64,000 bases of DNA, from positions 64,001 through 128,000 of the IMG/VR virus record IMGVR_UViG_3300005681_000033; one strand, given 5' to 3'. The notes beneath the pieces were generated by a model. That model made no database searches. It worked only from the letters and a program-made list of their open reading frames with translations, and had not been told where the DNA came from. The stretch comes from a virus. The position numbers and the translations under genes are program-made. How positions within the stretch are numbered: the stretch's first letter is position 1; each line of letters starts with the position of its first letter. Positions 1 to 28,870 of this stretch are shown here, in pieces.

Positions 1-786
1 TTTGTTTGCAGGTGCAGAATCATCAGGACTATTTAAAGCTTCTTCGTTGTCGTCGGACACATCATCCTCATTTCCAATTGGAGCTTCATCAGAATCATCA
101 GAATCTGAATCAGCATCTTGTGCGTTAGGGTCAGCTGCTGGTGGTGTAGCAGGTGCAGGTTTATTCATAGCTTTGTTTTTTGGCATAGCTTTGTTATCTT
201 GAATATTTGTATTTGCTTCAGCCTCTGCACCTTCTTCAGCAGGAGCTTTTGGAACAATACTGTCTTCCTCAGCACCTTCTTCTGGTGCTACTTCTTCAGC
301 TTGTGATTCGTTATCTTCCATAGCTTGATCTTCTAGATCACCTTCAGCTGGAATTTCTGGAGCTTGGTCAATATCTTGTGATGGATCTTCATCACTAGAT
401 TCGTCTGAAAGATAATCTTCCATATTAGGATCATAGTGAATCGTTTGATTTTTACCATTCATTTTGCCATAGATTAGGGCTTTAGAAGCCTGTGACATAG
501 AAGCGCCCACACCAACAGTTAAACCATGACCAGACGATTCTTGATAATCTTGTCTGATGGAATCCATTTGCGCAAGAGCGTCGTCTGGAACTAAATAAAT
601 AGCTTCATCTCCAGAGCCAGTGATTTTTTTACCACCAATTCCCTCTGCCCATTCATCGATCTTTTTGTGTGCTTGATCAATAGTAGAACTTGCGTTCGCT
701 AAATCCTGGTGATCATCATTGGCAATTGCGTTACCAATTCTAGTACCAACATCATCTCCGTTCACCGCCAAGTAGACATTACCCAT
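1..786 (-). CDS. mCpol (minimal CRISPR polymerase / GGDEF-Cas10 palm-like) domain protein with acidic low-complexity tail; runs off the window edge
   Basis: Not in the ORF track. Translated by hand from ATG 786 after RBS TAAGGAG: MGNVYLAVNGDDVGTRIGNAIANDD...GGKKITGSGDEAIYLV...LTVGVGASMSQASKALIYGKMNGKN, then D/E/P/A-rich and open to position 1. Confidence 0.7.
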   Translation of the reverse strand, partial: MGNVYLAVNGDDVGTRIGNAIANDDHQDLANASSTIDQAHKKIDEWAEGIGGKKITGSGDEAIYLVPDDALAQMDSIRQDYQESSGHGLTVGVGASMSQASKALIYGKMNGKNQTIHYDPNMEDYLSDESSDEDPSQDIDQAPEIPAEGDLEDQAMEDNESQAEEVAPEEGAEEDSIVPKAPAEEGAEAEANTNIQDNKAMPKNKAMNKPAPATPPAADPNAQDADSDSDDSDEAPIGNEDDVSDDNEEALNSPDDSAPANK

Positions 787-1324
787 TTTGCAACTCCTTA
801 ATTTTATTACTTTTCTTTAAATTTTCTGAAGCTGGCAAATACTGCAAATTCCAAGGAACATGCAATCCACAAACATCTGGATGATTTAAAGGAATGATAT
901 GATCGACATGAAATCCTTTTGGACAATTGTTGTAAATATCTTTAATTTCATTCATTACATTTGTAAAAGTAGCTTTTTGAACTTTAGCTCTTCTAATACT
1001 TGCTTTATAAGCAATTTTACTTTTGTTATTTGAAGCCCATTGTTTTTCTCTAGCTCTATACTTTTCTTTATTTGCTAAATAATAGTTTTTACGATACTCA
1101 AGTATTTCTGGCTTGATTGCAATCAATCTTGAATATTCTTTCATTTTTGAAATACCATAGTCACTTGATCTATATTTTTTATCTGCTTTGGATTGCCAAG
1201 ATTTTACCTTATCTTTATTCCTTGCTCTATATTGTTTTTGATAAGTATAATGACAAGTTTTACACCATCTCTGTGTAAACTCTGTTAGATTTTTCTCTAC
1301 TTTGCATTTCGTACATTTTTTCAT
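779..1324 (-). CDS. HNH homing endonuclease
   Basis: N-terminal CxxC pairs; HVDHIIPL...CGLHVPWNLQYL...N. Confidence 0.9.
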   Translation of the reverse strand: MKKCTKCKVEKNLTEFTQRWCKTCHYTYQKQYRARNKDKVKSWQSKADKKYRSSDYGISKMKEYSRLIAIKPEILEYRKNYYLANKEKYRAREKQWASNNKSKIAYKASIRRAKVQKATFTNVMNEIKDIYNNCPKGFHVDHIIPLNHPDVCGLHVPWNLQYLPASENLKKSNKIKELQNG

Positions 1325-2214
1325 TTTTTAGCTCTCAAAGCCTCTAAAAGCATTTCTACATTTTCAATATCAAAATTTTTAGGAAATTTGATTTTTACGG
1401 TACCATCTACATTTTTCATAATTTTGATAGACTTGGCCATAAATTCACCGTAGCAAATACACGGAATAATTTCTTCTGATTCTTTTTTATGAATTGTGGT
1501 TTTACAATCTGGACATTTAACATCTTCACTCTTGTCCATTTCTACAGACTCTTGACGCTTTTTTTCTAAATTGTCAAGGAATTGTCGCAACTTACTCTTT
1601 TTATTATCTTCCATTGGCGTTTCTTCCTTTGGTTCAGGCTTTTCTTGTACAGATTCAAAATGACTATGTAATCTTGCCTGAATCATCTTTTGAATAGCCT
1701 CTCGTTCAGAGATACGCTTATCAACCACATCCTTAATCATGTTGTGCATCATTAAACGTTGATCGATCAGGTCTTGTAGTTTATCGATTTTTTGTTGTTC
1801 TGGTTCAGAAGGTTCTTTTTTAAGATCTTCGATTTTATCTAAATCATAAAGCTCAAATACACTTAATAAAATTAAGCCAATTGAAGGAAGAGATCTATGA
1901 TAGAATTCATATTTGACCTTACCTTCTTGTGTAATATTACCACTGTAGTTGTCAGCACCAAGTTTGTTAACATGAAGTTTTGCACCAAGTGCCCATGGAA
2001 TATCTAAGTCAGCAATGTCATTAGCCGATAAATGCTTAAGATTAAAGAATAGAAACGACAAAACTGCTCGTGGAACAATCTCCAGAGCTACTCTGATTTC
2101 TTCGGGTTGTAGAGCCGTCTTAGTTTCTGGTTTATAAATCGCTGATTTTTTCAATTCATCGAATATATCTTTACCTAGAATACTTTTGACGATTTTGACG
2201 TCTTTAAGTTTCAT
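1321..2214 (-). CDS. Hypothetical protein with Cys-rich C-terminus; candidate internal head protein
   Basis: CPDC...CIC; IVKS, LKKS, MDKS, MAKS motifs; in the late operon. Confidence 0.45.
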   Translation of the reverse strand: MKLKDVKIVKSILGKDIFDELKKSAIYKPETKTALQPEEIRVALEIVPRAVLSFLFFNLKHLSANDIADLDIPWALGAKLHVNKLGADNYSGNITQEGKVKYEFYHRSLPSIGLILLSVFELYDLDKIEDLKKEPSEPEQQKIDKLQDLIDQRLMMHNMIKDVVDKRISEREAIQKMIQARLHSHFESVQEKPEPKEETPMEDNKKSKLRQFLDNLEKKRQESVEMDKSEDVKCPDCKTTIHKKESEEIIPCICYGEFMAKSIKIMKNVDGTVKIKFPKNFDIENVEMLLEALRAKK

Positions 2215-2725: not shown

Positions 2726-3604
2726 TTAATCTTCAAAATCCCTAACATCTACGCGGATTTGGTAGTCGTTAGGCTCTATATTTTCTACCGGTTCGTCCTG
2801 AGTTCTTGGGGTTTCCGTCTTAACATTTGTTTCTTTTTTGTCACCACGTGGTTTGTTGTGGTAAACGTATTCTCTTTGAATAATCGCATGATAGGGCAGT
2901 CTAGCCGGTGCATTTGCATCACTGGTATTTGTAATCCTAACCTCATTAATAAGGCGCTGGACATACCAAAAAGCCACATACATATATCTAACACCGTATA
3001 AGCGACCTTTTCCGGTCGATGGGTCAATTCCAGGGTTTCTTTTGCCGTCAATCCATTGAATGTCACCATCGGAATTTACAATAAAATCAACACCTTCGTT
3101 ATATTGGACGTTGTTTGAATCTCTCAAAATTTGAACGCATTTGGCTGGAAACTGTAGCGTATCCGATGCTTTAGGTCTGTATTCAACCTCTTGATAATTT
3201 GGCACCCTAACTTCAATTTTTTTAGGGTAGATTCTGTCACCTGGAAGTAAGGCAATTTCTTTTCCACCACCGCAATCTTCATTGTAGAACTTTGGCAACA
3301 CCAATCTCGCTTCTGAGGTATCCATAATACCACCTTCAGAGTGATTGTGCTTTTTGCTATTACCAATAATGGTTCCAACGAATTCGCCTACTTTTGTGTA
3401 AATATATCCGTTTTCAGCAATTGTATCCAACGCTTCAGGTCTACGCAAATCACCACGATCAATCTTTCCAACTGTAGATGGAATAGCAGCAAAATGCTCA
3501 AAAACAACACCCTTGTCTTTGCCAAATTGTTCTTGAGATTCCAAATTGAATTTTATATCAGGTATAATGTCAGGTAATGCCTTGATATCTTCACCAGTGG
3601 CCAT
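2726..3604 (-). CDS. Putative neck / head-closure protein
   Basis: Size, beta-rich YNEGVDF..WIDG..Y.VRY pattern, late-cluster context. Confidence 0.5.
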   Translation of the reverse strand: MATGEDIKALPDIIPDIKFNLESQEQFGKDKGVVFEHFAAIPSTVGKIDRGDLRRPEALDTIAENGYIYTKVGEFVGTIIGNSKKHNHSEGGIMDTSEARLVLPKFYNEDCGGGKEIALLPGDRIYPKKIEVRVPNYQEVEYRPKASDTLQFPAKCVQILRDSNNVQYNEGVDFIVNSDGDIQWIDGKRNPGIDPSTGKGRLYGVRYMYVAFWYVQRLINEVRITNTSDANAPARLPYHAIIQREYVYHNKPRGDKKETNVKTETPRTQDEPVENIEPNDYQIRVDVRDFED

Positions 3605-4137
3605 TAGTATCCCTTTTTAATGCCTTTAAGATTTAACTCGTGTACTTTTTCTTTTAGGGCTCTTGCAATGCCTTTAGCTGTTCCTACGTTTTTGTCGACA
3701 ACTTCTTTGTAATCAAAACCACCGTTTTTTAAAACTAATGTTTGATCTTCAATTTCGCTAGAATATTGACCTAGTGTAAGTCCGTGTTTATAAAGAACAA
3801 AATCAATTTTATTGCCCTTAGAAAGGATGTACAATTCAACACCTTTTGCGATCATTTCGCTAGGTAAATATTCTGTTCTTGCTTCAACTTTCTCTAGTTG
3901 ATCTTGCTCTGATTTAAAAATTGCTGGTTCGAAATCAGCACCGTATTCTTTTGTTAATTGATGTGCAACTAGGGCTTGGTGAGAACCTGCAGCCAAGGCT
4001 TCAGCTTGAGAAGAAGATTTCTTCTTTTTGCCTACAGCTACATAAAAACCACCGTGGGTTTTAACGACCTTGACGTCATCTCCGTGTAAATTTCCAATAA
4101 CCTTAATTGATTCAACCTCTGATGGAAGTATATTCAT
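3604..4137 (-). CDS. Hypothetical late protein, candidate internal head protein
   Basis: RBS GAGG; own late motif; IFKSE motif mid-protein. Confidence 0.5.
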   Translation of the reverse strand: MNILPSEVESIKVIGNLHGDDVKVVKTHGGFYVAVGKKKKSSSQAEALAAGSHQALVAHQLTKEYGADFEPAIFKSEQDQLEKVEARTEYLPSEMIAKGVELYILSKGNKIDFVLYKHGLTLGQYSSEIEDQTLVLKNGGFDYKEVVDKNVGTAKGIARALKEKVHELNLKGIKKGY

Positions 4138-4200: not shown

Positions 4201-4845
4201 CTAATTGATTTTATTGCTTTTCTTTAAATTATCAACCATCCAAAGAGGTTGTAAATTCGTATAATGACACGCCTTAATGATTTCTTCTCTGTCCGTTAGA
4301 TTAAAACTTGACAATGGCTTGATGTGATCGATATGCCAACCAAATTTACCGTAGTTATTCCAAGACATATTTTTCTCAAATTTTGTTTCTATGTATTTTT
4401 TAAAAAAATCTAGAGTACAACCTAGATCTTTTATAGCAGAACCAGGTTTATTTCTATTGATTGCGTTATTTAGCCTAGTTCTTAGATTACAAGCAATGCG
4501 AAATTGTAAATCTTCTTTTTTTCTCTTTTTGTGATTAGTAACGCTTTTTTTAATTAAAATATTTCTATTAGCTTCGTAATATGCCTTGCTTTTTGCTTTA
4601 ATTTTATCTGGATTTTTCAGGCTATAGTTTTTATAAATAGTTTTCATTTTTTCTACATTGTTTTTTCTATAAAAACCATTTTTAGCCAATTCTTTTGTTT
4701 TGTTTTTGTTGTAATACACTTGTCTGTATTGTTTTTGACAAATTTTACAAATATCTCGAAAACCTGTTTTTGAAGAACAATGTTTGTTAAACTCAGTTAT
4801 TTCTTTAATATTTTGGCATTTTTTGCAAAAATGTGTTGTGTTCAT
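4201..4845 (-). CDS. HNH homing endonuclease
   Basis: CxxC pairs; WHIDHIKPLSSF...CHYTNLQPLW..DN. Confidence 0.88.
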   Translation of the reverse strand: MNTTHFCKKCQNIKEITEFNKHCSSKTGFRDICKICQKQYRQVYYNKNKTKELAKNGFYRKNNVEKMKTIYKNYSLKNPDKIKAKSKAYYEANRNILIKKSVTNHKKRKKEDLQFRIACNLRTRLNNAINRNKPGSAIKDLGCTLDFFKKYIETKFEKNMSWNNYGKFGWHIDHIKPLSSFNLTDREEIIKACHYTNLQPLWMVDNLKKSNKIN

Positions 4846-7800
4846 TTTTCTTGTTTTTTAATGTTTTTTACCGGTGGGTGTAGCTGATTCATAAGCTTTT
4901 GGACATAATGATGATCTTTAAATTGTCTACCATTTTTGATTGCTTTTTTCGTACCTGCAATCCCATTTAACCATGCGTAACCAATATGCATTGGGTTTTC
5001 ACCTAGTGCTTTTACGATATGGTCATAATGCTTAGAAGCAATTAAATGCTCAAGTTTTGGGTTTTTGTCCATATAATCATGAAACTCTTGACCTGTTAAA
5101 CCTAAAGCAGCTGAGTGAGCTTGCATTAAATTTGGAATTCTTTTAATTGTCTCTCGAATAACAACCGGCATTAATCCATAACTTCCGTAGGCTTTGTCAC
5201 CCTTAAAGAGTCCAGATTTCATTTCTGCATGGTCTGTGTTTTTACCATTAGATGATTCGATAAATTTAATTCCGCTCAACACCCGATCTTTTTTTGTAGG
5301 AGTAGTTGGCTTGTTTTCGACAACTTTTGGTTGGGTTGGCTGTGGTACCTGAGTTTGTTTAGAAGTATCCATCGGAGCCATAGTTCCAGCGGCAATTGCT
5401 AGTCCTGCAATCCCTGATTTGATCTTGTTTGAAATATCACCTTTTTGTAATGGTTGTAACACGATTGCCTCTCGCTTTCCAAACTTTTTACGTTTGAATT
5501 CTTCAGCTCTTTGTTGACGCTGTACCATTCTTTTATGGTCGTCTTGCCAAGCATTTGGTAATTCTTTTTCAGAAGCTTTTGCCTGTGCAGTTAGGTTAAT
5601 TTTTTGATTGAGATCTTTTCTAGGTTCCTTTGCTAATTCTACAATTTTAGGGTTTGCGTGTGCTATTTTACCTTTGTGGTTTACAATAACTTCGTGTTCT
5701 GTTCTAAACTGAGTGTTTTCGTCTGGAATTAATGTAGCATTTGGTACGTTATGAATGTGTGATTCTGGAATCCAAGCCGATACCACACGTGGGCTTTTGC
5801 CAAGATTTTCAAGGTGGTCACTAGCAAAACCACTAGCTACTTTGTAACTTGGTGTCCAAGATGTAAAAGAATTTGGAGGATAGTTGGCAACGCCATTGAT
5901 ATGATTTGTTTGAAATTCAGATTCCGCCATACCTCGATGTAACAAGAACATTCTCTCGCCTGTTTTTGGATGACGTCTAACCTGTGTTTTTCCTGTTAAT
6001 TTATGTAGGGCTCTGATTTTCGCATTGGCGTGAATTTCAGGGACGTTTTGACGAGCATCTTGATCATCACCTTCTTTAGTCCAGTTTTCAGTAGCCTTGT
6101 GATCTTCAGGATTTAAGTTTTTATCAGGATTAAAAGGTGCGAGTCTGTTCATTGCACCCTTCATCATGATAATTTCACGTTTCTTTAATTGCATTTGACT
6201 GTAAACAGATTGTACGCTATTTTTAGTAGTATTTTTTTCTGGTTGATGTGTGTTTAATTTATGCGGATTAACTATAACCTCATGTTCATTTTTTAAATTT
6301 TCCCTTAAAGAATGATCTTGTTGATTTTGATTTTTAATAGAAAACATTGGAATGCTATGTATGTGTTTTACAGGAATCCAAGAAGACATGGTTTTTGGAC
6401 CAGACATATCAATCTTTTTTCCATATGTTGATTCTTGTTCTTGAATATCATTTGGATTTTCCATGGCATTTCTAAAATAATCTTGAGCGAAGTTATGTGC
6501 TGTATTGTAATTAGGCGTCCAAGAAGTTTTATCATATGTATGATTATTATTTTCTATTGTATTGTGATGTTCTATTGGATGCATTCCTCTATGTAATAAA
6601 ACCTCAAGCTCTCCACTATTTGGATTTTTTCTTGTTTGTGTTTTTTTATAAAGATTAAGCAATGCTCTTTGTCTAGCATTTCCCACTACAGAAGGAACAT
6701 TATCCCTATTAAAAGATGAAGCATTTACCCATTGTTTTGTATTGTTGTGATTCTGATCGGTTATATCTGCATTAGGGTTAAACGGAAATAATCTTTGTTT
6801 AGCACCTTTCATCATAATGATTTCACGTTTCTTTAAACCACCAAGCTGTTTGTAAATAGAGTTGTGCTCGCTGTCCATGGCCCAATCTGGCAATACAGTA
6901 GCTTTTTGATCTGCATAAATTGTATTTGCAGGATTTTTTCTATTGTTCTCTCCATGGGGTCCAAAATTAACCCATGAATTTTGACCGCGAGTTTCTGCCG
7001 TCAATGCTTTCTGAGCCATTGGAGAATACATTTGCATATGGTTTTTCCATGCATTCTCTTCACCTTCAGCACCAAATCCATGGCCTTCTTTAGCATGGCC
7101 AAAATAATCATGTACAATTCTAAACACATCGTTGGCAACCATTGGTTGACCTTCATGCATGTGTTCAGTTGGTTGTAACATTGGATGTGCAGAATCCGCC
7201 TGATTGGGGTCGGAGCCATATCCACTTTCCGTTGGGAAATACCAAATATGATTATTATTGTGAATGTCGTGAAACAGGTCTTTAGAAGTTTTATATGGAT
7301 TTTCTTGTCCAGGTTTGATTTTAGAAATCTTTAAACCTGAATTTAAAATATGTTTAAACTGATCGTTAGTTTCTTTAACTAGAGCCTGATAAGCTTGTTG
7401 GACGTGTTGGGCTTGAGGTTCGTGATTTGCTTGATGATAGGCATCAGCAATACGCTTCGCACGCGTCGGGTCAACTTTGACAGCTGGCATCTTGTGTTGT
7501 AATCTCATTCCTTTAGAAGCTGCATACCGATCAGCAACACCTCTAATTTTATCACTACCTTTGTCAGTAGGTTTAGGCTTATTCATCCATGGAAAATCGG
7601 TTGGTAATGCACCACCAATACCCTTGGCTGCGTTTTCTTCATTTTGAGCACGTATTTTTTCTTGCTTAGAAGCACCGGCTACCATTTTATTGGCAACGTT
7701 GGTTTGTCGTTCATTTATGGCATGGCCAACTTCTTCTTCAGAGTATTCCTTACCACCAGCACCAATATGGTTGTCAGACTTGATCTGTTTAAGTCGATCT

Positions 7801-8786
7801 AAACCAATATGCTTTGATGGTGACTGAATACCCTTTTGAATGTTATTTAAGGACTCTTCTGACTCCACAGGAGTTTCATGGTACAAACCAACAACACCAC
7901 GCATATCTTCACGCTCATGTTGAGAGTTATAAAAACCATGAAACCCTCGCTTTTTTAGCTCTCCGTGTAATTCGTCACGGGTAACGATCCCTGGATTAAG
8001 GGTTTGACCTGATTGCTTCAGGTGTTGACTGACCTTGTCTTTGTCTAGACCAAGATCGTATAATTTAGCTTCTTGTGTTTTAACATGATATTTAGAATTC
8101 GAACCTTGAGTAACCAAATCTTCTGTTGGAGAATCCTGTCTATAGAAAAAAGACACAGGATGTTCTGGACGACCGTATTTAGAAGATGAATCTTTGATTC
8201 GATTGCCCTGATGAATTGGGTTGATTGACTTCAAACCTTGAGTTGGTGAATAATGAATCAAGGTTAATTCATCTTCGCTCTTTTTAACATAACCTTCTGG
8301 TTTCAATTTAGACATTTCTGGTTCATGGAAATTTTCCATGTCAAAAGAATGGGTAAAGGTAGTACCGTCTTTTAAGGTCGAAAAATAATCTTCAGGTGGT
8401 CGTTTATGGAAGTTTGTGCCTTGACCTTTTAAATGTTGGCCTGCGTGTTCACCGTGGTGGAAATGCATCTCATGATTGTAACCGTCTGAGTAAATACTCG
8501 ATTCTTGACCAAGTCCTTCAGCAAGCTTTTGTAAATATCTAACTGCGTGTTTATTTGGATTGTGAACCAAAATGGAGTTTTCTGGACTACCATAATGACC
8601 TTGTATTACATCGAAACGATAGCCTTTTTTAGTAAGCAAGTCTTGCACACCTTGATGATCAAGATTGTATTTAACTGGATAACGTGGATTTTCTGCAGAA
8701 AAGATAAAATGAGGCTTTCGAGCGTTGACAGAATCAACCTCGGTTGTTAATGGATTTTTAACTGATTGCAGTGTCTTTTTATACAT
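4842..8786 (-). CDS. Multidomain polyvalent/polyprotein: SAM-lyase-like, ART-like, HDxxGH metallopeptidase-like, 2x R-S-E ADP-ribosyltransferase, lytic transglycosylase
   Basis: FSAENP..GHYGSPENS..LA..GQES; LIHYS..FFY..LYDL..GFHG; VHDYFGH..GEENAW; LLHRG..SWTP..EHEVIV twice; IESSNG..AYGSYGLMP..AWLNG. Confidence 0.7.
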   Translation of the reverse strand: MYKKTLQSVKNPLTTEVDSVNARKPHFIFSAENPRYPVKYNLDHQGVQDLLTKKGYRFDVIQGHYGSPENSILVHNPNKHAVRYLQKLAEGLGQESSIYSDGYNHEMHFHHGEHAGQHLKGQGTNFHKRPPEDYFSTLKDGTTFTHSFDMENFHEPEMSKLKPEGYVKKSEDELTLIHYSPTQGLKSINPIHQGNRIKDSSSKYGRPEHPVSFFYRQDSPTEDLVTQGSNSKYHVKTQEAKLYDLGLDKDKVSQHLKQSGQTLNPGIVTRDELHGELKKRGFHGFYNSQHEREDMRGVVGLYHETPVESEESLNNIQKGIQSPSKHIGLDRLKQIKSDNHIGAGGKEYSEEEVGHAINERQTNVANKMVAGASKQEKIRAQNEENAAKGIGGALPTDFPWMNKPKPTDKGSDKIRGVADRYAASKGMRLQHKMPAVKVDPTRAKRIADAYHQANHEPQAQHVQQAYQALVKETNDQFKHILNSGLKISKIKPGQENPYKTSKDLFHDIHNNNHIWYFPTESGYGSDPNQADSAHPMLQPTEHMHEGQPMVANDVFRIVHDYFGHAKEGHGFGAEGEENAWKNHMQMYSPMAQKALTAETRGQNSWVNFGPHGENNRKNPANTIYADQKATVLPDWAMDSEHNSIYKQLGGLKKREIIMMKGAKQRLFPFNPNADITDQNHNNTKQWVNASSFNRDNVPSVVGNARQRALLNLYKKTQTRKNPNSGELEVLLHRGMHPIEHHNTIENNNHTYDKTSWTPNYNTAHNFAQDYFRNAMENPNDIQEQESTYGKKIDMSGPKTMSSWIPVKHIHSIPMFSIKNQNQQDHSLRENLKNEHEVIVNPHKLNTHQPEKNTTKNSVQSVYSQMQLKKREIIMMKGAMNRLAPFNPDKNLNPEDHKATENWTKEGDDQDARQNVPEIHANAKIRALHKLTGKTQVRRHPKTGERMFLLHRGMAESEFQTNHINGVANYPPNSFTSWTPSYKVASGFASDHLENLGKSPRVVSAWIPESHIHNVPNATLIPDENTQFRTEHEVIVNHKGKIAHANPKIVELAKEPRKDLNQKINLTAQAKASEKELPNAWQDDHKRMVQRQQRAEEFKRKKFGKREAIVLQPLQKGDISNKIKSGIAGLAIAAGTMAPMDTSKQTQVPQPTQPKVVENKPTTPTKKDRVLSGIKFIESSNGKNTDHAEMKSGLFKGDKAYGSYGLMPVVIRETIKRIPNLMQAHSAALGLTGQEFHDYMDKNPKLEHLIASKHYDHIVKALGENPMHIGYAWLNGIAGTKKAIKNGRQFKDHHYVQKLMNQLHPPVKNIKKQEK
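6154..6188 (-). repeat. 35-bp junction repeat, copy preceding ART domain 2 (encodes LKKREIIMMKGA)
   Basis: 32/35 identical to 6802-6836; mismatches synonymous. Confidence 0.9.
6802..6836 (-). repeat. 35-bp junction repeat, copy preceding ART domain 1
   Basis: 32/35 identical to 6154-6188. Confidence 0.9.
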
Positions 8787-12212: not shown

Positions 12213-14333
12213 CTACTTCTTTTTTTCGTTTTTGTAAAGAAATTCAGATTTGGCAATTTTCATTTTTGGCTGTGCCTGTGGCATTTCTGGTTGAGCAGGC
12301 ATTGGAGCTGGTTGATTTTGAGCTACCGGTTGTTGTGTAGGCATTGGAGCTGGACGCGGTTTCATTCGCACTACATTTGGAGGCAATTCTTGCTGCATTT
12401 GTGGTTGAACGGCTTGTTTTTTAGCTTGTCTATCCAACACAGCACCTGGCTGCCTATTTGTAATAGCAGCGTCTAAGGTTCTGTCTGCCTTAGACCATCC
12501 TTTATCTGGGTGAAATTTCATTTGACCACTAAAAATAGCATGTAATCGTGCTTTGTTTTCAGGAGAAAGGTTTCTCGCTTGACGAATTAAATCGACATAC
12601 TTTTCCTTTTTGCCTGGAACCTTAACACGAGTGGCAATCACCTTATTTGGATCTTCAACGGAAGTTCTCTGAGGTGCATTTTTATCCTTTACTGGAATTG
12701 ACACCTGACTTGCTGGCATCCCAAGAAAACGACGAATCAACTGCTCTGCAGCCATTGGTTGCACTTCACCTTGAGATCGTTTTTGTTGCATATATCCATA
12801 TTGCTTTTGAACATCCGAATATTGCTTATCCATTAAACGCTGTCCATCTTCAAGACTAACACCTTCAGGCATTAACATTAAATGTGCAATTTCATGAACA
12901 ATTGCTTCAGGATTCCATTGAGCTTCGAATTTACCTGAACGCCAATCTGGTTTATCCACACCAATTTCATTGTCTGCTTTTCTACGCTCACCTGTCTTGT
13001 CGTTTACCTTACCACCTGATGGTTGCAAATCAAGACCTAAAAACTTATCAACGAATTTTTTGATATGATTGATGTGCTTATCACGCATTGCAGATTTCGC
13101 TGCAGGTTGAGAATTGGTTCCAAATACCTTTTTACGTTGTTCGCGTACATTTTTAGAGGCTTTGTTAATATCTGAGTGTCCAAGCTTACGAACAATAACA
13201 AATTCAGATTTAACAACATCGACTTCAGACTTAGGAAGGTTTGGTTTTGGCATATCTTTCAATTCTTTCAATTTTCTAGAATGCATTTGACGTGCAACTT
13301 GTTTTTGTCTTTCTTTTCCACCAGATTTAATAGGTGTTTTTTTATTACTTCCTGCGATAGCCATGACACCAGCTCTACTATGAGTTCCAGTCCCAACATC
13401 CGACGTATGAACTCCCTTTAAATCTTTTGCCAATGCGTCACCCTGTACTTTTTCAGATGAAACTCCAGCACCACAAGACGCAACAAGAGCTTTACGAACA
13501 TTTGAATCGTATTTACTAAGCTGTTTTTTCTCGTTCTTTTGCCATGCTGGTTTCATTTTTGGCATTTTACCGTAAATTTGAGTGCCAGTTTTGGCTTTTG
13601 GTTCAGCTGCATAATTGATTTTATCACCAACGTGCATAGTGCTCGGAGCATTTTTTGGACTGAAGATGCGTTTAGGGATACGACCACTTCCAGGAGGAGA
13701 ATTCAAATCTGCTTTGTAAATGAAAGGAATCTCACCTTTCATGATTTGACACGAAGCTTCGTCTGCTTTAGACATAACATCTTGAATAAATGCAAATTTA
13801 CCAGAATCTGACTGTTTTTGGGCTTTGTCGTCTACTTTCAATTCGTAAGCTTCACAAACTTTATTGCAAGGAGTCAAAGTAACAGATACTTTTCTTGCAA
13901 TACATTTTGTAATAATAGCACCTTGTTTTTCAACACGAGAGCCTTCGATAGAAAAATTGATTAGTTTTTTGGCTTCTTTGTTAAGAGGTGTCATTTGGTC
14001 GTACTTGAGCATTGCAGCTACTTCACTAGCAGCTTTGTGACCAACCGAATCAAATAATTCACCAGCAACATAAATAAAAGGCATTTTAAGCTTATCCCAA
14101 AATTCCTTTTGATGTTCATTTTCGCAATCAGAGCGTTTTAAGATTTTCTTGGCTTCCCAAATCTTACCTACAATAGAAGAAGGGCTTTTAGAGTCATGTT
14201 CGTAGTTAAAAGTTCCATCTTTTGTAAGACTTGTAATATCTACGCCTTCAATTTGAATACGTTCGCCAGAACTATCTAAGTGTTCTGAGGCAGCGATGCC
14301 ATGAATGAAAGTTCCACGTTTTTGATCAGACAT
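12213..14333 (-). CDS. Prohead (capsid maturation) protease with long C-terminal extension containing an HExxH domain
   Basis: GIAASEHLDSSGE..NYEH..IVGKI..GELF..FSIEG..VTLTPCN; HEIAH at 12882-12896. Confidence 0.8.
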   Translation of the reverse strand: MSDQKRGTFIHGIAASEHLDSSGERIQIEGVDITSLTKDGTFNYEHDSKSPSSIVGKIWEAKKILKRSDCENEHQKEFWDKLKMPFIYVAGELFDSVGHKAASEVAAMLKYDQMTPLNKEAKKLINFSIEGSRVEKQGAIITKCIARKVSVTLTPCNKVCEAYELKVDDKAQKQSDSGKFAFIQDVMSKADEASCQIMKGEIPFIYKADLNSPPGSGRIPKRIFSPKNAPSTMHVGDKINYAAEPKAKTGTQIYGKMPKMKPAWQKNEKKQLSKYDSNVRKALVASCGAGVSSEKVQGDALAKDLKGVHTSDVGTGTHSRAGVMAIAGSNKKTPIKSGGKERQKQVARQMHSRKLKELKDMPKPNLPKSEVDVVKSEFVIVRKLGHSDINKASKNVREQRKKVFGTNSQPAAKSAMRDKHINHIKKFVDKFLGLDLQPSGGKVNDKTGERRKADNEIGVDKPDWRSGKFEAQWNPEAIVHEIAHLMLMPEGVSLEDGQRLMDKQYSDVQKQYGYMQQKRSQGEVQPMAAEQLIRRFLGMPASQVSIPVKDKNAPQRTSVEDPNKVIATRVKVPGKKEKYVDLIRQARNLSPENKARLHAIFSGQMKFHPDKGWSKADRTLDAAITNRQPGAVLDRQAKKQAVQPQMQQELPPNVVRMKPRPAPMPTQQPVAQNQPAPMPAQPEMPQAQPKMKIAKSEFLYKNEKKK

Positions 14334-14368
14334 TTTAGACCTTTGTGATAGAAAGTGATTTTACATCT

Positions 14369-14378
14369 TAAAGATTGT
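14369..14378 (-). promoter_or_regulatory. Late promoter motif ACAATCTTTA
   Basis: Same motif at 2705, 4166, 10088, 23968 and 32441, upstream of structural/lysis genes. Confidence 0.65.
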
Positions 14379-14574
14379 GTTTTAGTCAACAAATCACCCT
14401 AAATACTTAAAAACACTAGGTTTTGGTTTTTTATTTTGGGAAGATTTGGTTTTCCAAAACTGAATAAAATCAATAGGTTAGACCTATAAAAGGTCAAAAA
14501 TACTAATCATTTACCTTGTATTGACGATTCAAAACGTCTAGGGCATAAATCAACCAATTTTTGGAGGAAAAACT

Positions 14575-14970
14575 ATGAAATCACTTGCAAAAGCTGATGC
14601 ATTGGCTCGTGGCTTAAAAGAACGTCTTCAATTCCGTGGCTATTCAGTCGCTGAATCAAGAGACGCTGAAGGCTGGCCAAAGCTAACACTTAACACTAAC
14701 GAAGCTTCATTGAAGATCGTTGCTGCTGACGCAGTTTCTAAAGATATTTTTGGAAACAGTCTAGTTGCTTTCGCACCACACAAAGTTGAATTCGCTTCTC
14801 GTGACGATGCTATGAGCACGTTAAAAGTAGCTCAAATTCAAACTGAACTTGTTAAATGTGGAATCGAAAAGCAAATCGTAAAAACCCACGCTACTGTTTT
14901 GGCTACTGCCGAAGCTGCTGCTGGAACTGAAATCAATTTTGATGTTCAATGGCCTACTAAGGGCGTTTAA
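14575..14970 (+). CDS. Putative head-associated protein
   Basis: Strong RBS GGAGG; first gene of the scaffold/capsid operon. Confidence 0.6.
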   Translation: MKSLAKADALARGLKERLQFRGYSVAESRDAEGWPKLTLNTNEASLKIVAADAVSKDIFGNSLVAFAPHKVEFASRDDAMSTLKVAQIQTELVKCGIEKQIVKTHATVLATAEAAAGTEINFDVQWPTKGV

Positions 14971-14995
14971 TTAACACTGGAAGGAGTGCATATTT

Positions 14996-15709
14996 ATGAA
15001 GAAAAAATATTCTGATAAAGATATGGCCGCTCTGATTGGTGAAATTGAAACTCATTTCAACACTGTGTTGAAGTCACAAACTGAACCAACAGATCTTAAA
15101 AAATCTGAAGAAGCAAATGAAGTAAAAGTTGAGGAAACTCAAGTAGCTACACCTGCTCCTACTGAATTTGGTTACGACGAAAAAGACATTCAAGAAATGA
15201 ACGAAATGTATTCATCTATGACAAAATCTGAAGCTAAAGCTCACTTTGAAGCTCTGAAAGCTGCCCACTTTCAAGAAACTCAAGAAGCTCCTGCTAAAGA
15301 AGAGGTTATTGCTAAGTCTGAAATCAAAGAAGTTCAAGCTTCTGAAAACGACGAAACAAAACTTTTAAAGTCAGAAATTGAAACACTGAAATCAGAAAAA
15401 GAAAAACTGGAAAAATCATTTAACGATCTAACTGCAAAATTGATTGCGTTTGTTAAAGGCTCTAAAGCTCCAAAGCAAAAAGCCGTTACTCAATTGCAAT
15501 ATGTAGCAAAATCTGAAGATGAGGTTAAGGTTGAAGAGAAAAAAGAAGATGTGTCTAAATTAGACAAAACTGAAATTTCTCGAAGACTTACTGCTCAAAT
15601 CCGTTCTGGAAAACTAGAAAAAAGCGAGCGCGAAAAAATCAACAATTTCTACCAATCAGGTAGTAAAAATATTGAGTCTATTAGACATCTATTAACAGGA
15701 GGAAACTAA
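14996..15709 (+). CDS. Capsid scaffold protein
   Basis: Acidic coiled coil directly upstream of the capsid gene; about nine hydrophobic-x-KS motifs. Confidence 0.75.
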   Translation: MKKKYSDKDMAALIGEIETHFNTVLKSQTEPTDLKKSEEANEVKVEETQVATPAPTEFGYDEKDIQEMNEMYSSMTKSEAKAHFEALKAAHFQETQEAPAKEEVIAKSEIKEVQASENDETKLLKSEIETLKSEKEKLEKSFNDLTAKLIAFVKGSKAPKQKAVTQLQYVAKSEDEVKVEEKKEDVSKLDKTEISRRLTAQIRSGKLEKSEREKINNFYQSGSKNIESIRHLLTGGN

Positions 15710-15710
15710 A

Positions 15711-17105
15711 ATGGTCGAACAACTAAACGATCTATTAAAAGCCCTTGAAGCAGGTTCATACAACGCTGCTCCAGGTCAGCTTGTACAAGGAGCTGCGTTG
15801 CAGGTGGAAGATCTTTCTCCTGTGATGGAAAACGTCACTTTTGACGACAGCCACATCAAACTTCAGAAGATGCTTAGCATTAAAGATGCAAAAAGCACTC
15901 TGATCCAATTCAACCGTCAGCTTGACTACGGTATTTTCGGCGGATCTGCTCAGTATGAAGGCGGAATCGGTGAAGAAGATACATCGAACTACGTTCGTGC
16001 TATCGTTCCAATGGCTTACTACAGCACAACTCGACGAGTTTCTGTTGCAGCTAACCTAATTGGTGCAGTAGATGGTAAAAAAGCGGAAGATAGATCAGCT
16101 TCTGATGCTGCTATGAAACTTTCTGCGGATATCGAATTCGATTCTTTCCGTGGACAAGCAGATTTCAGCAATGCTGGTATTTTCGATGGTAACCCAAATG
16201 CTATCGCTGATATCCCTAACATGGTTGGTGTTGATGCTCAAATCCGTATGTCTGACAGCTTGTCAAACACACAAGATTTGATGTTTGCTGAATACGGTTC
16301 AGATCAAACAGTTATCGTTTCTGTAAACGGAACTTTGACTCAAACTTCAATCGAAGATATGTCAGTTAAATCTGCAATGCAACATGGTTCTGCAGATAAA
16401 TTAATTCTTGACCCAATTTCTTTAAGTGCTTACAACAAAATTGCTTTTGCAAAAGAGCGTATCATGTTGTCAGGTTCACCTCAAGAAGCTACTGGTGCTG
16501 AGTTGAGAAAACAATGGACAAGCTCTGCTCTTGTTTCATTAGAGCCTTCTCGTTTCCTTTCTGGAAAAACTCGCCCTGCACGTTCTCGCGCTGGTTCTCC
16601 TGCGGCTCCTGCTACTTTAACAAGTGCTGCTGCTGCTAACCCTGCTTCTAACTTGGCTGCTGGTACATACGTGTACAAAGCAACTGCAGTTAATGAGCGT
16701 GGTGAGTCAGTTGAGAAAGTTGATGATGGTGGAGCACAAGCTGTTGCCGCTGGTGAAGCTGTTACTTTAACTATCGCTCCTGTTTCTGGTGCTAAATACT
16801 TTAACGTATATCGTTCTGAAGACGGTGGAAGCGCAGCTTCTGCAAAATTCATCGGTAAAGTTAAGGCTGCTGGTTCTGGTAATACTTCTTTCATCGACCT
16901 TGGCAATCGCCGACCTGGTTCTGTTACTGGATTCTTAATCCAAGCTAACACAATGGGTATGCACCAATTGTCTCCATATAGCCGATTGAAATTAGCTCTT
17001 AGTGACTTGTCACTTCCAGAAGCTCACTTCCGATTCCTTTGCTTGGCTGCTTACCAACCACGCAAAAACGTATTGGCTGAGAACATCGAAGGTCAGTTAT
17101 CTTAA
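15711..17105 (+). CDS. Major capsid protein (SPO1/Twort-like)
   Basis: LLKALEAG..GAALQVEDLS; Ig/FN3-like insert (YVYKATAVN..GES..YFNVYRS); biased codon use; terminator follows. Confidence 0.9.
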   Translation: MVEQLNDLLKALEAGSYNAAPGQLVQGAALQVEDLSPVMENVTFDDSHIKLQKMLSIKDAKSTLIQFNRQLDYGIFGGSAQYEGGIGEEDTSNYVRAIVPMAYYSTTRRVSVAANLIGAVDGKKAEDRSASDAAMKLSADIEFDSFRGQADFSNAGIFDGNPNAIADIPNMVGVDAQIRMSDSLSNTQDLMFAEYGSDQTVIVSVNGTLTQTSIEDMSVKSAMQHGSADKLILDPISLSAYNKIAFAKERIMLSGSPQEATGAELRKQWTSSALVSLEPSRFLSGKTRPARSRAGSPAAPATLTSAAAANPASNLAAGTYVYKATAVNERGESVEKVDDGGAQAVAAGEAVTLTIAPVSGAKYFNVYRSEDGGSAASAKFIGKVKAAGSGNTSFIDLGNRRPGSVTGFLIQANTMGMHQLSPYSRLKLALSDLSLPEAHFRFLCLAAYQPRKNVLAENIEGQLS

Positions 17106-19865: not shown

Positions 19866-21623
19866 ATGAAAAAAGTTAAAACACCTGCTAAAATGTTTAA
19901 CAGCAATTTAGTCGAGTTAGAAAATATCGTAGTGAGAACTATCGATAAAATTGACCGCATTGTAGGCTCTTCACTGGGTCCAGGTGGACGCAATGTGATT
20001 ATTGAGTCCGAATTACCCGGCATTCCGAATAAGAACACTAAGGACGGAGTGACGATCTTTAAATCATTAGGGTCAAATGACGCATATGAACATCTCATTA
20101 TCGAACAGACTCGTGATGTGGCTATTCGAACGGTAAACGAAGCTGGTGATGGAACTACCACAGCCACAGTTGTAGCCTCAGCTTTTATTAAGAATCTTTT
20201 TCGTTATTGCGCAGAAAATAGAAAAAACAGCCCTCAAAAAGTTACACGTGAAATCCAAAAGATTGTTGAGGGTAAGCTAATCCCACAAATTCGAGAATCT
20301 GCAATTAAAGTAACTCCTAAAAACCAAGATCTATTAGAAAAAGTAGCCACTGTATCTGCAAACGGCGATAAGGAAATGGCCAAGGCTGTGATGGAAGCCT
20401 TTGAAAAGGTTGGCTTTGGAAGTAATTCACATGTTACTATTCAAGAGCTTTCTGGCCCTTCTGGATATGAAACAGAATTGATTCGTGGCTTTCCTATCGA
20501 AAAAGGATATGAAGAATCAATTGGTAAATTTCATGCTAGTTTTATTAACGACCAGGGACACCAAAGATGCGTTCTTGACAATCCTCTATTTATTTTATTT
20601 GATGGAAATATCAATGATTTAGTACAGGTACATGAAATTTTAACACATATTGGTCAAGAATATGTATCTGGAAATGCTGATTTTAAAAACGTAGTCGTTG
20701 TTGCTCATAAATTCCAAGATCAAGTTTTAACCAACTGGGCATGGAATTTTAGTAATCCCAACACCATTAATGTTGTTCCTCTGCAAACACCTATGGTACC
20801 TATGGTTAACGGTCAAATGCAATTCTTAATGGATCTATCAGCGTTCACGGGCGCAAAAATTTTTGATATGAACAATCCTTTGATCGAGGCTACTCCTGAC
20901 GATCTTGGTAAAAACATGAGTAAGATCGAAATTAGTCGTTTTCGCACTACTATTGTTGGAGAATCAGACGCTACAAATGTAGAAGTGAGAGCTGAAGAAA
21001 TTCAAACAATGATTAAAAATGCAGCCTCTAAACTTGAAAAGAATATTTTAGAAGAGCGTCTTGGTAAATTAACCAGTGGCATTGCACAGTTAAAGATTTA
21101 TGGTGCCTCTAATGGTGAATTAAAAGAGAAATCAGATCGAGCAGAAGATGCTGTTTGTGCAGTTCGAGCTGCCATTAACCATGGTTGTTTACCTGGTGGA
21201 TGTCGAACACTGATTAATTTAGCAATGAGTTTGTCAGAAGAAACAGACCCTATGGTTCATTCTGTCATCATCCCTTCTTTATTTGCACCGTTTCATAGAT
21301 TACTTGAAAATGCTGGATATAGTCCTGAAGAGATCGAGAAGCTTATTGTTAAAATGATCGAAAAGCCAAATCATGTTTATGATGTTGAAAATGCTACTTT
21401 TGGAGATTTCAAAAAAATGGGAGTGTATGATGCTGCCATGGCCGTTGAACAGGCTCTAAAAAATGCAGTTTCTATTTCATCGGTTATGGGAACTCTAGGT
21501 GGTATTGTTGCTTTCCCTAGAGACAATCAATTAGAAAATCAAGAACATAAAGAAGCTATGAATTTCCAAAGAACTATTGACAATGCACAGTCTTTGGCAA
21601 ACGAAGCAAATGAGAGGCCATAA
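19866..21623 (+). CDS. groEL: Phage-encoded GroEL-like chaperonin
   Basis: SLGPGGRNV, TKDGVT, AGDGTTTATV, ERLGKLTSGIA, PGG. Confidence 0.95.
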   Translation: MKKVKTPAKMFNSNLVELENIVVRTIDKIDRIVGSSLGPGGRNVIIESELPGIPNKNTKDGVTIFKSLGSNDAYEHLIIEQTRDVAIRTVNEAGDGTTTATVVASAFIKNLFRYCAENRKNSPQKVTREIQKIVEGKLIPQIRESAIKVTPKNQDLLEKVATVSANGDKEMAKAVMEAFEKVGFGSNSHVTIQELSGPSGYETELIRGFPIEKGYEESIGKFHASFINDQGHQRCVLDNPLFILFDGNINDLVQVHEILTHIGQEYVSGNADFKNVVVVAHKFQDQVLTNWAWNFSNPNTINVVPLQTPMVPMVNGQMQFLMDLSAFTGAKIFDMNNPLIEATPDDLGKNMSKIEISRFRTTIVGESDATNVEVRAEEIQTMIKNAASKLEKNILEERLGKLTSGIAQLKIYGASNGELKEKSDRAEDAVCAVRAAINHGCLPGGCRTLINLAMSLSEETDPMVHSVIIPSLFAPFHRLLENAGYSPEEIEKLIVKMIEKPNHVYDVENATFGDFKKMGVYDAAMAVEQALKNAVSISSVMGTLGGIVAFPRDNQLENQEHKEAMNFQRTIDNAQSLANEANERP

Positions 21624-24006: not shown

Positions 24007-24966
24007 ATGTCTAAGTTGAACCTTTTAATTCACGTTAACGCATATGAGGACTCAAATCCTACTAATAACCCGTCTCGCAACAATTTTAAGTGGAATAGGG
24101 ATCAACAAGGGATTGATATTTCTGAGCCAACTTCTCAGTCTTTATCCTTACCTGCAGGTCAAAGCATGACCTTATTTTCAGGTACTGTGTCAAACGCTTC
24201 TGACAACACTACCACATGGGATATTGCTTTAAAAGCCGGTACAAGCAATACTTATAAAATTTCTAAAAATGCAGGTACTTCACCGGCTTTTAGAACAGCA
24301 AGGGGAAGCTCTGCCGACGCCACAACTGAAATTACAATTACTAAGAATGCCAGTTTATTGACAATTGCTTCGACTGGTGGAACAGCCCTAAATCTTATTG
24401 TTGGTGGTGTCATTGTTGGAGATGAAATTAGATTAGGTAGTTTGTTTAGCCCAGTAAATCGTGGAAAATACAAAATTCTTTCTCGAACAGCTACGAGTGT
24501 TACAATTGAAAATAATTCTGGACAAGCTGAAGGACCTATTACATTAGGTGTTGGTTTTGCTGATCAATTAAGTATTTTTAGCGCAGCTGGTGTTCAGGTA
24601 GGCGACAAGGTTGACTTGGTAGCTGGGTTTAGCTCCGTCAGTTTTGGTACTTATGAAATTACCGATGTTTCTCCTGATTATATTGAATTTTATAGCAGCG
24701 ATGCCTTGCCGGTAGAGTCGGCTGTTTCAAACAACCCTGCAGCATTAATGGTATATCGAGATGCAAAGCAATTTGTTTATATCGAATCGAATAAAAAATT
24801 AGAAGTTAAGATTAACAACTCTGCAACTCCCAATACAATCGAACCAATGCAAGCAGGTAGTTCAAATGCTCCTGGAATGTTTATGTCAAGTTCTTCAATG
24901 AAGAGCTTGGAAATTACAAACTTGTCAATGGAAACTGCCAATATTTTTTACGTGACGGCGGAATAG
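24007..24966 (+). CDS. Putative virion structural protein
   Basis: S/T/A/G-rich beta protein in the portal operon. Confidence 0.55.
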   Translation: MSKLNLLIHVNAYEDSNPTNNPSRNNFKWNRDQQGIDISEPTSQSLSLPAGQSMTLFSGTVSNASDNTTTWDIALKAGTSNTYKISKNAGTSPAFRTARGSSADATTEITITKNASLLTIASTGGTALNLIVGGVIVGDEIRLGSLFSPVNRGKYKILSRTATSVTIENNSGQAEGPITLGVGFADQLSIFSAAGVQVGDKVDLVAGFSSVSFGTYEITDVSPDYIEFYSSDALPVESAVSNNPAALMVYRDAKQFVYIESNKKLEVKINNSATPNTIEPMQAGSSNAPGMFMSSSSMKSLEITNLSMETANIFYVTAE

Positions 24967-24974
24967 GATAATCT

Positions 24975-26771: not shown

Positions 26772-26783
26772 TAGGAGTTTAAA

Positions 26784-27398
26784 ATGGCTGCAGACTGGAA
26801 AATGAAGTACCAAGAAATTCGTGGAAAGCTTAAAGAAGCTACCGACGTCGCATGGCGTTTAGGCTATGAACGTGGCATGAAAGATGGAACTCAACAAGCG
26901 CAAATGCAACAAATGGCTCAGATGCAGCAACAACAAGCTGCAATGATGGGTGGTGGGCAACCTGGACAACCCGGTGCTCCTGGACAAGACCCAATGGCTG
27001 GTGGTGACCCAATGGCACAAGGTGCAGCTGGTGGTATGCCTCCAGGTGCAGAAGAGGGTGGTGACGATGCACAAATGGGCATGGGTGCTCCCGATGAAGC
27101 TGGTGGGGAAGAAGCTGGTGGTGGTTCTGAACTAGACAACCATATCAACGAACTTCAATCGTTGGTTTCTAAAGGACAAAAACCATCAGTTGTTGATATT
27201 CGTAAGGTAGTGGATAATTTGGCTGGAATTAGAAAACATCAAAAAGATTCTTGGGCTAAAAAAGTCAATAAAATTGTACCTGCACAAAAGAAAGTGGTTG
27301 ATTCGATTTTAAAGAAATGGGAAACAGAAAGTAAACGACCATCGTCTGAAATTGAAGCTATTATTAAAGAACATGGATTGAAGATTGACACAGAATAA
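26784..27398 (+). CDS. Hypothetical protein with Q/M/G/P-rich disordered centre
   Basis: RBS AGGAG; between portal and MuF. Confidence 0.65.
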   Translation: MAADWKMKYQEIRGKLKEATDVAWRLGYERGMKDGTQQAQMQQMAQMQQQQAAMMGGGQPGQPGAPGQDPMAGGDPMAQGAAGGMPPGAEEGGDDAQMGMGAPDEAGGEEAGGGSELDNHINELQSLVSKGQKPSVVDIRKVVDNLAGIRKHQKDSWAKKVNKIVPAQKKVVDSILKKWETESKRPSSEIEAIIKEHGLKIDTE

Positions 27399-28679: not shown

Positions 28680-28680
28680 T

Positions 28681-28800
28681 TATACGTATGTTTAAACATA
28701 ATGCGTATAAAACGCATATGCATTCTTAATAAAATCAACTATTTACAGTCTTATACGTATTTATGCGCAAAAGCGTCTATGAATATTCATTTTATGCGTT
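28681..28800. repeat. Palindrome-rich array of WATRCGYW motifs (candidate origin or operator array)
   Basis: Six motif copies, perfect 14- and 12-bp palindromes, IHF-like site. Confidence 0.6.
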
Positions 28801-28870
28801 TATTGTATTTTAATGATGCATTTTATAGAATTATGTTGCTATAACTTGTATTGTTGTTTATACTAAGAGC

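Follow-up and report, generated by a model that had tools for sequence, protein, structure and literature searches.

Analyzing a 64,000-nucleotide stretch of an uncultured-phage contig (positions 64,001 to 128,000 of the IMG/VR virus record IMGVR_UViG_3300005681_000033; hereafter the window), we found that the open reading frame (ORF) at 4842..8786 on the minus strand encodes a 1314-residue polyprotein built of seven modules (A, B, C, D, E1, E2, and an anchor together with F) that are shuffled among its relatives, and that the linkers between these modules carry a conserved short motif shared with head-assembly proteins. Judged from their sequence, the linkers most likely copy a putative prohead-protease site with a hydrophobic residue at P3, lysine at P1 and Ser, Gly or Ala at P1'. 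We lean, if only slightly, towards the interpretation that this polyvalent protein is loaded into the prohead, that the protease cuts the chain at its exposed linkers and that the enzymes leave with the DNA. The contig that holds the window is 166,783 bp long with ~37% G+C; its closest cultured relative is Myxococcus phage Mx1 (OR576727), with 52% identity between the two full-length capsid proteins, and a near-identity DNA search among phage records returned no match to this DNA.

Module shuffling and the linker motif

Searching the whole 1314-residue polyprotein against Pfam, NCBIfam and PDB sequences matched nothing useful, and a search of 5.8 billion proteins recovered 136 relatives, which are 722-2300 residues long and whose contigs reach 168 kb. 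An earlier note, made from the letters of the window, had read the ORF as a chain of modules and had proposed comparing the module boundaries with K-[S/G] sites and the cargo composition with that of related phages. We defined module borders as the ends of BLAST local-alignment segments against 119 mosaic relatives, a definition that is independent of the motif. Segment ends in the polyprotein clustered at residues 149-174, 308-318, 405-414, 636-665, 840-877 and 1050-1122, and segment starts at residues 166-167, 313-317, 409-414, 658, 874 and 1110-1113, which places them on the junction motifs. Iterated profile searches within the relatives set recovered these modules in numerous arrangements and with differing numbers of copies, and the architectures among the 119 relatives include A-B-C-D-E-F, D-A-B-E-F, E-E-E-D-B and F-A-D-B-E. 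The modular chain is thus borne out by the segment ends and by the shuffling of modules, and the borders obtained from shuffled relatives coincide with the K-[S/G] motifs. Mosaicism of this kind, as read from the alignments, is a hallmark of polyvalent proteins.

In its strict form the motif is hydrophobic-x-K-[S/G], with the proposed cut directly after the lysine (P1); below, the cut is marked ↓ and a hydrophobic residue φ, and all features of the polyprotein gene are on the minus strand. Junction 1 reads V-K-K↓S-E (residues 167-171; 8274..8288), where relatives have φ-x-K↓S-E, and junction 2 reads I-Q-K↓G-I (residues 316-320; 7827..7841), for which orthologs show φ-x-K↓[AG] with a variable P2. 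Junctions 4 (residues 651-662; 6801..6836) and 5 (residues 867-878; 6153..6188) consist of the same 12 residues, L-K-K-R-E-I-I-M-M-K↓G-A, and at junction 4 relatives read K-K-S-E-x-φ-x-K↓G-[AS]. Junction 6 reads L-Q-K↓G-D (residues 1113-1117; 5436..5450; orthologs φ-x-K↓[GSN]-[DE]) and is preceded by F-G-K-R-E here and by F-G-K↓S-E in relatives. All five motifs quoted in the earlier note (VKKSE, IQKGI, MMKGA twice, and LQKGD) lie where it had placed them. Junction 3, which its list did not contain, reads T-D-K↓G-S (residues 407-411; 7554..7568) with a non-hydrophobic P3 and is the weakest, the motif being absent in orthologs P0005-P0008; in the model of domain D the first helix follows three residues after this site.

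The identity of junctions 4 and 5 is confined to the peptide. Their 12 residues are identical with four synonymous differences, and the ADP-ribosyltransferase (ART) modules themselves are only 34% identical, indicating that the peptide and not the DNA is conserved. DNA repeats at the junctions reach no further than 22 nt at 82% identity, so the sameness of the two linkers is not accounted for by a recent duplication. Module E2 was folded as part of a 441-residue E2-F construct, and in this model the first eight residues (with M-M-K↓G-A) and residues 230-287 (holding L-Q-K↓G-D) have a predicted local distance difference test score (pLDDT) below 50, so that both modelled junction sites are predicted to be accessible.

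The polyprotein begins with a leader, M-Y-K-K-T-L-Q-S (residues 1-8; 8763..8786), conserved in 22 relatives whatever their first module, and it is the conservation of this N-terminal M-Y-K-K that fixes the start of ORF 4842..8786. In most relatives the leader reads M-Y-K-K-[ILV]-[LF]-K-[SA], the P1 lysine being Gln here. Relatives bearing it include P0005-P0021, P0047, P0118 and P0119, and φ-x-K↓S-E usually occurs within 25 residues after it. By its sequence the leader may serve for capsid targeting or as a propeptide; both it and a stand-alone ART with the N-terminus M-K-C-L-Y-K↓A would fit a portable propeptide.

To see how far the motif belongs to the junctions we turned to the relatives, leaving the query polyprotein out of all counts. 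The density of the motif was 2.6 per 100 residues in junctions versus 0.29 in module cores (~9-fold). The 103 junction segments contained 92 motifs versus 19.9 +/- 4.3 after a composition-preserving shuffle of each segment, and reversed and permuted control patterns in the same segments were at or below expectation. K-S-E occurred 180 times versus 63 expected, with a hydrophobic P3 in 74%, and junctions of many different module pairs read φ-x-K↓S-E-x-φ-x-K↓G-[AS]. Depletion of the motif in cores would be expected if stray sites were harmful to a chain that is cut. Some distant relatives are rich in φ-x-E-[SAG] (z 3-4) and have L-F-S-E or F-L-P-E before domain D.

The same motif in head-assembly proteins

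The polyprotein gene lies within a minus-strand block of structural genes, with phrog_772 upstream and phrog_1004 downstream. Gene order around it is kept in two metagenomic relatives, and the genes for head protease, scaffold and capsid are 3.4 to 8 kb upstream. Exploring these head genes, we found that the 237-residue scaffold protein (14996..15709, plus strand) has φ-x-K-[SAG]-[DE] six times when Ala is admitted at P3 as well, and K-S-E seven times versus 0.47 expected. In the 252 ORFs of the genome there are 48 copies of the motif with an acidic residue after it, six of these in the scaffold and seven in the tail of the head protease (φ-x-K, with Ala again counted at P3). The major capsid protein (15711..17105, plus strand; phrog_752) has the N-terminal sequence L-L-K↓A-L-E-A-G (K10↓A11), and the site L-x-K↓A-[LM]-E-A-G is conserved here, in the relative L002 and in Mx1, where it reads L-R-K↓A. 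A tblastn alignment places the capsid lysine on Lys26 of the CP-51 capsid, L-N-K↓A-L-S-A-G (K26↓A27). The earlier note had stated that the motif repeats in the scaffold and at the capsid N-terminus; for the scaffold this holds as stated, and at the capsid N-terminus the site is present with Ala at P1' and not Ser or Gly.

The head protease gene (12213..14333, minus strand) encodes 706 residues with a prohead serine protease domain at residues ~1-200 and a zincin-like H-E-I-A-H domain at residues ~278-635; linkers carrying the motif are found at residues 187-207, 366-377 and 693-697, and the end is rich in Q and P. In tblastn searches the N-terminus was 39% identical to the putative prohead protease of Mx1 (E 4e-29) and 30% identical to SPO1-like prohead serine proteases (E 8e-7). 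Residues 2-49 match phrog_1028, and a Pfam search of the protease gave no match. SPO1-like Bacillus phages have distant counterparts, 25-30% identical, of both the capsid protein and the first 160 residues of the protease. The H-E-I-A-H tail is 47% identical in L002 (885 residues, DUF6321), whereas the Mx1 protease (1239 residues) has other modules instead.

The motif recurs in the head proteins of these phages as well. Scaffolds carry nine motifs in L002 and five in Mx1 when Asn is also allowed at P1', and the annotated scaffold of CP-51 (273 residues) has 13 when D/E after P1' is not required. A 1598-residue polyvalent protein of L002 carries seven motifs at domain-sized spacing, and in Mx1, whose composition differs, a 1479-residue giant protein annotated 'NUDIX hydrolase' has four φ-x-K↓[SA]-E at residues 129-133, 307-311, 606-610 and 1251-1255. 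Given that the motif is common to head proteins here and in L002, Mx1 and CP-51, we concluded that it follows the capsid-scaffold-protease lineage. Moreover, since the H-E-x-x-H tail is absent from the Mx1 protease while the motif persists, the serine protease domain is favoured as the reader. On the Mx1 genome the 'NUDIX hydrolase' is at 24404-28843 and the 1239-residue 'prohead protease' at 13002-16721. Three small proteins of the head block carry single motifs, namely I-F-K↓S-E at residues 73-77 of the ORF at 3604-4137 (minus strand), M-D-K↓S-E at residues 226-230 of that at 1321-2214 (minus strand) and an N-terminal M-K-S-L-A-K↓A-D in that at 14575-14970 (plus strand); by this feature they may be further substrates of the protease.

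The modules, domain D and neighbouring genes

Module F (residues ~1160-1308; 4863..5309) is a Slt-type (family 1) lytic transglycosylase by both fold and motifs. It carries E-S at residues 1177-1178, G-L-M at 1204-1206 (within G-L-M-P) and A-W-L-N-G at 1271-1275, and the catalytic E-S is invariant (E304, S305 and G308 of alignment A4). Comparing model residues 287-435 with solved structures, VIA returned Cj0843 (Z 11.8; root-mean-square deviation (rmsd) 2.9-3.4, 120-123 aligned), Slt70 (Z 11.3), MltC (within Z 11.1-11.8), phiKZ gp144 (Z 9.6) and the T7 core protein 7eyb_I (Z 8.4), and the Foldseek probability was 1.00. In front of F, residues 1122-1138 (5373..5423) form a Gly/Ala-rich, weakly hydrophobic segment, conserved in relatives, that resembles a signal-arrest-release (SAR)-type anchor; no other part of the polyprotein is hydrophobic, and the 17-residue Kyte-Doolittle mean of this segment, 1.18, is the highest. 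The hydrophobic-anchored transglycosylase of the earlier note is therefore confirmed by the fold and E-S motif of F, with an anchor that is Gly/Ala-rich and weakly hydrophobic.

Modules E1 (residues 661-845; 6252..6806) and E2 (residues 877-1045; 5652..6158) have features of an ART fold. The motif residues appear in order in both: Arg 733 (LLHRG from 730), S-W-T 755-757 and E-H-E 834-836 in E1, and Arg 951 (LLHRG from 948), S-W-T 976-978 and E-H-E 1030-1032 in E2. These R-S-ExE motifs, which define ARTs of the cholera toxin, C3 and Alt type, are kept in 48 module copies from 37 relatives. The core of the E2 model has a pLDDT of 80-94, and the structural matches of model residues 11-177 all belong to the ART superfamily at modest scores, namely Tpt1 (Z 6.4, rmsd 3.3, 92 aligned) and Vis toxin (Z 5.4, rmsd 3.8, 123 aligned) in VIA, and Certhrax and cholera A (prob 0.3-0.66) in Foldseek; atlas leads for E2 were NarE, Scabin and pertussis S1. 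The two R-S-E ARTs proposed earlier are thus supported by the Arg, S-W-T and E-H-E motifs, with fold scores that are modest.

Module A (residues ~24-155; 8322..8717) is similar to S-adenosylmethionine (SAM) lyases of the PF23780/DUF3293 family according to Pfam and jackhmmer. Its segment matched PF23780 with 23.2 bits (E 6.9e-5, profile positions 18-130 of 133), below the 28-bit gathering cut-off, whereas ortholog P0011 scored 29.4 bits, above it; three other orthologs scored 23.6-25.5. In jackhmmer searches module A was linked to the DUF3293/SAM-lyase regions of P0029, P0110 and P0117. The SAM-lyase-like label of the earlier note is thus partly supported, by the P0011 score and the profile links, with the polyprotein's own segment remaining under the cut-off. 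The ART-like label that it had given to residues 167-313 was not confirmed by Pfam, profile-profile or PDB searches. This region is module B (residues 172-313; 7848..8273), which occurs at varied positions in 52 relatives, starts with L-x-H-Y-S, has G-x-x-G near its end and keeps H12, G28, G115 and G118 invariant. The sole hint at its function, a protein-language-model match to ART-PolyVal (0.92), was not confirmed: Pfam, including ART-PolyVal PF18760, gave no match even at E<=10, hhalign against a single-sequence profile of ART-PolyVal gave a probability of 12.8%, and in relatives the B-like and the PF18760 regions lie at different places. The short module C (residues ~319-406; 7569..7832), which has no assigned function, is found in 15 relatives, and a family search with it gave no match. 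Profile searches against solved structures returned no relative for modules A, B, D or E; matches to AcrIF23 (E 0.55) and TolA (E 3.3) from these searches were regarded as noise.

Module D (residues 410-648; 6843..7559), with its conserved H-D-Y-F-G-H...E, is the most conserved part of the polyprotein and is present in 112 of the 119 relatives. Its invariant residues (N, D, R, H, D, H, E, H, E) comprise an N-D-x-F-R-x-V-H-D-x-x-G-H block and further Glu and His residues, and because of these invariant features module D is probably a metal-dependent enzyme. The AlphaFold2 model has a pLDDT of 93, and its comparison with solved structures gave nothing credible (Foldseek best E 0.35, VIA best Z 2.9). 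Aromatic amino-acid hydroxylases, whose H-x4-H...E pattern is alike, were not accepted, as the matches had E ~1 and a TM score of 0.17, nor were YbeY and the minigluzincins (Z 2.3-2.7, too weak). An exhaustive search with domain D identified 4730 cluster representatives at E<=0.001, the copies being often 50-70% identical and located at any position in proteins of 212-3703 residues. Its fold matches in BFVD were limited to phage proteins, either polyvalent or MuF-fused, and we observed the domain in an annotated 'large polyvalent protein', in a 'structural protein' of phage E3, among head genes of cluster C mycobacteriophages, and in giant proteins of cyanophages, actinophages and crAss-like phages. 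The HDxxGH..E domain of the earlier note is therefore real, confidently modelled and widespread. In a crAss-like contig (L003, 10001-16786) a 2261-residue domain-D protein is encoded directly after the crAss muzzle gene (PF25731), next to a ferritin-like gene and a 1218-residue protein, in the region where crAss-like phages encode ejected cargo; the linker before its domain D is L-F-S-E and not the Lys motif.

Several neighbouring ORFs of the window may be mentioned. Those at 4201-4845 and 779-1324 (both minus strand; 214 and 181 residues) are Cys-rich, end in H-x-D-H-I-x-P-L...N...N and resemble HNH homing endonucleases. The former overlaps the stop codon of the polyprotein gene, a place at which the relatives L002 and L004 instead have an ORF of 71-74 residues. 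At 1-786 (minus strand), in the same structural block, lies a minimal CRISPR polymerase domain (mCpol; PF18182, E 5e-10) with a long acidic tail; its position is kept in L002 and L004, and Mx1 has an annotated 'nucleotide cyclase' near its head genes. A GroEL-like chaperonin ORF of 585 residues is found at 19866-21623 (plus strand), a few kb from the capsid gene.

A proposed cleavable cargo and its alternatives

By analogy with known systems, the polyprotein would be packaged, cleaved by the protease encoded at 12213..14333 and injected as a set of free enzymes. The chain would be made late, enter the prohead, perhaps by means of its N-terminal leader, and be cut there at its exposed linkers by the scaffold-digesting protease; the resulting enzymes would exit with the DNA at infection. 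The transglycosylase piece would then start with G-D-I-S, carrying the anchor at its new N-terminus, and would digest the cell wall at entry, and the SAM-lyase-like and ART pieces would be active in the cytoplasm ahead of any phage gene expression. Every part of the cargo idea that could be tested in sequence came out in its favour, and the interpretation overall is partly supported. The location of the gene in the structural block, the occurrence of domain D in MuF-fused proteins and in proteins of the crAss cargo region, and the match of F to the T7 core protein fit with packaging. The 'anti-defence' role of the earlier note we infer solely from the SAM-lyase-like and ART-fold modules.

A number of observations weigh against this reading. 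The polyprotein contains eight strict motifs versus 6.5 expected from its composition (z 0.6), which is chance level. Their placement, in contrast, is not at chance level: five of the eight fall in junction windows, which together cover 14% of the chain (binomial P = 0.0023). The other three, at residues 995, 1193 and 1257, lie inside folded modules, a position that the earlier note had named as speaking against its proposal. In addition, A-S-K-G at residue 423 is a conserved part of domain D. Given that the motif is short and also occurs within folded modules, the motif alone is not sufficient for cutting. Some sites have decayed here, the leader Lys having changed to Gln and the N-terminal K-S-E to T-T-E, and three upstream K-S-E sites read K-R-E, leaving single K↓G sites. 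The junction between C and D is weak and its motif is missing in several orthologs, so that these two modules may stay joined, and together with the decayed sites this means that some modules may remain connected. Finally, SPO1-type prohead proteases are taken here to be Lys-specific, in line with the scaffold pattern; our literature search found no statement of the cleavage specificity of SPO1/Twort-type proteases.

The conserved linkers could also serve another purpose. If the protein were packaged and injected as one uncut chain, like the N4 virion RNA polymerase, they would be docking or targeting tags for the scaffold/protease core, or favoured flexible joints for recombination. The transfer of some polyvalent proteins as a whole (PMC5512222) agrees with this, as do the decay of several sites here with the reading frame kept and the exchange of modules exactly at the linkers, which recombination or docking would also explain. 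Nevertheless, the same motif fills scaffolds, which are normally degraded by the protease, marks the N-terminal site of the capsid protein and is depleted inside cores, and the linker copies differ synonymously, so that homology for DNA recombination is not the conserved feature; we consider an uncut chain unlikely. Cutting at the linkers by a different protease, be it the H-E-x-x-H (zincin-like) domain of the head protease gene or a host enzyme after injection, has in our view only a slight chance of being right. Metallopeptidase domains have been proposed by Iyer et al. as processors of polyvalent proteins (PMC5512222), and the 706-residue protease gene does contain an H-E-I-A-H domain that is 47% identical in L002, yet in Mx1 both scaffold and giant protein have the motif although the protease gene lacks H-E-x-x-H, and the motif reaches SPO1-like CP-51, whose 253-residue protease has no such tail.

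It is also conceivable that the polyprotein is not virion cargo and functions late in the producing cell as a cytoplasmic or membrane multi-enzyme, the anchored transglycosylase serving lysis and the other modules acting there at the same stage. A Gly/Ala-rich anchor before a lysozyme-fold domain does resemble SAR endolysins, but here 1120 residues precede the anchor, the structural block around the gene is conserved, domain D is associated with MuF, portal-context and crAss cargo-region proteins, and a SAM lyase or host-modifying ARTs would be of little benefit if made only late. We rate this reading as improbable and retain loading into the prohead followed by cleavage at the linkers as the interpretation to be compared with known systems.

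In T4, the internal proteins IPI-III and Alt, the latter an R-S-E ART, are packaged in the head and injected, and gp21 removes their N-terminal capsid-targeting sequence; the gp21 motif, hydrophobic-x-Glu, is common to scaffold and capsid proteins. The polyprotein likewise has an ART effector and a short N-terminal tag, its leader recalling the capsid-targeting logic of T4. Unlike it, T4 cargo consists of single enzymes that lose a propeptide only, whereas here P1 is Lys and the sites lie between enzymes, which would give rise to several products. Ejected proteins of the T7 gp16 type share the transglycosylase (F versus 7eyb_I), making local wall digestion at entry plausible; in contrast to gp16, F is C-terminal here, follows a Gly/Ala-rich anchor and is fused to enzymes directed to the cytoplasm. 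RNA-virus polyproteins and the herpesvirus assemblin/scaffold provide an analogy of logic, in that a viral protease divides one product at short junction motifs. Prohead proteases are held to share an assemblin-like fold, with no other homology to the herpesvirus or RNA-virus systems. In the giant phages SPN3US and phiKZ the prohead protease cuts many internal head proteins, and also itself, at A-x-E (P3-P1), and 13 of the 14 sites mapped in SPN3US remove N-terminal propeptides (PMC10052503). A simple protease motif in head proteins, including the protease, is thus common to those phages and the present one, but for them that paper reports no multi-enzyme chain cut at every border.

Polyvalent proteins were described as phage and conjugative-element chains of disparate domains that are mosaic and predicted to be injected with DNA (Iyer et al. 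2017, PMC5512222). Their processing was proposed to involve built-in metallopeptidase or C-terminal assemblin-like domains, and no linker code was described (PMC5512222). The polyprotein resembles them in its many unrelated enzyme domains, including ART and wall-lytic ones, in its mosaicism and in its position among virion genes, and it differs from them in that its joints carry a motif common to scaffold and capsid, pointing to a separate prohead protease. Neither the SAM-lyase-like domain nor domain D was among the terms found in Iyer et al. (PMC5512222). Our literature search found no protease-site linkers in polyvalent proteins, no enzyme chain cut at every joint and no linker shared with a scaffold. 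By its sequence features, then, the polyprotein is a member of the polyvalent-protein class, whose framework is already published, and what is new is a linker code shared with substrates of the head protease.

A broader proposal, to which we give somewhat less than even credence, is that prohead proteases of the Mx1/SPO1 lineage are polyprotein processors, that the linker φ-x-K↓S-E-x-φ-x-K↓G together with the leader forms a portable load-and-cut code defining both cargo and exchange boundaries, and that in other lineages the motif may follow the type of protease. Under such a code any effector module could be inserted into the chain, packaged, freed as an enzyme within the capsid and injected. 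Co-variation of the junction motif with protease type could not be established within the relatives set. Since Mx1 is cultured, the cleavage prediction is directly testable there. Module D, with ~4700 cluster representatives, is in any case an abundant and highly conserved phage domain without a match among solved structures. For laboratory phage-bacterium systems the code also suggests a route by which enzymes of choice could be placed in phage heads. Polyvalent proteins are believed to reach the cell ahead of all other phage proteins; if the proposal is true, recognition of a linker code by the head protease would provide a concrete mechanism for loading and activating such long enzyme chains, would make cargo and fragment boundaries predictable from sequence and would account for module exchange precisely at the joints.

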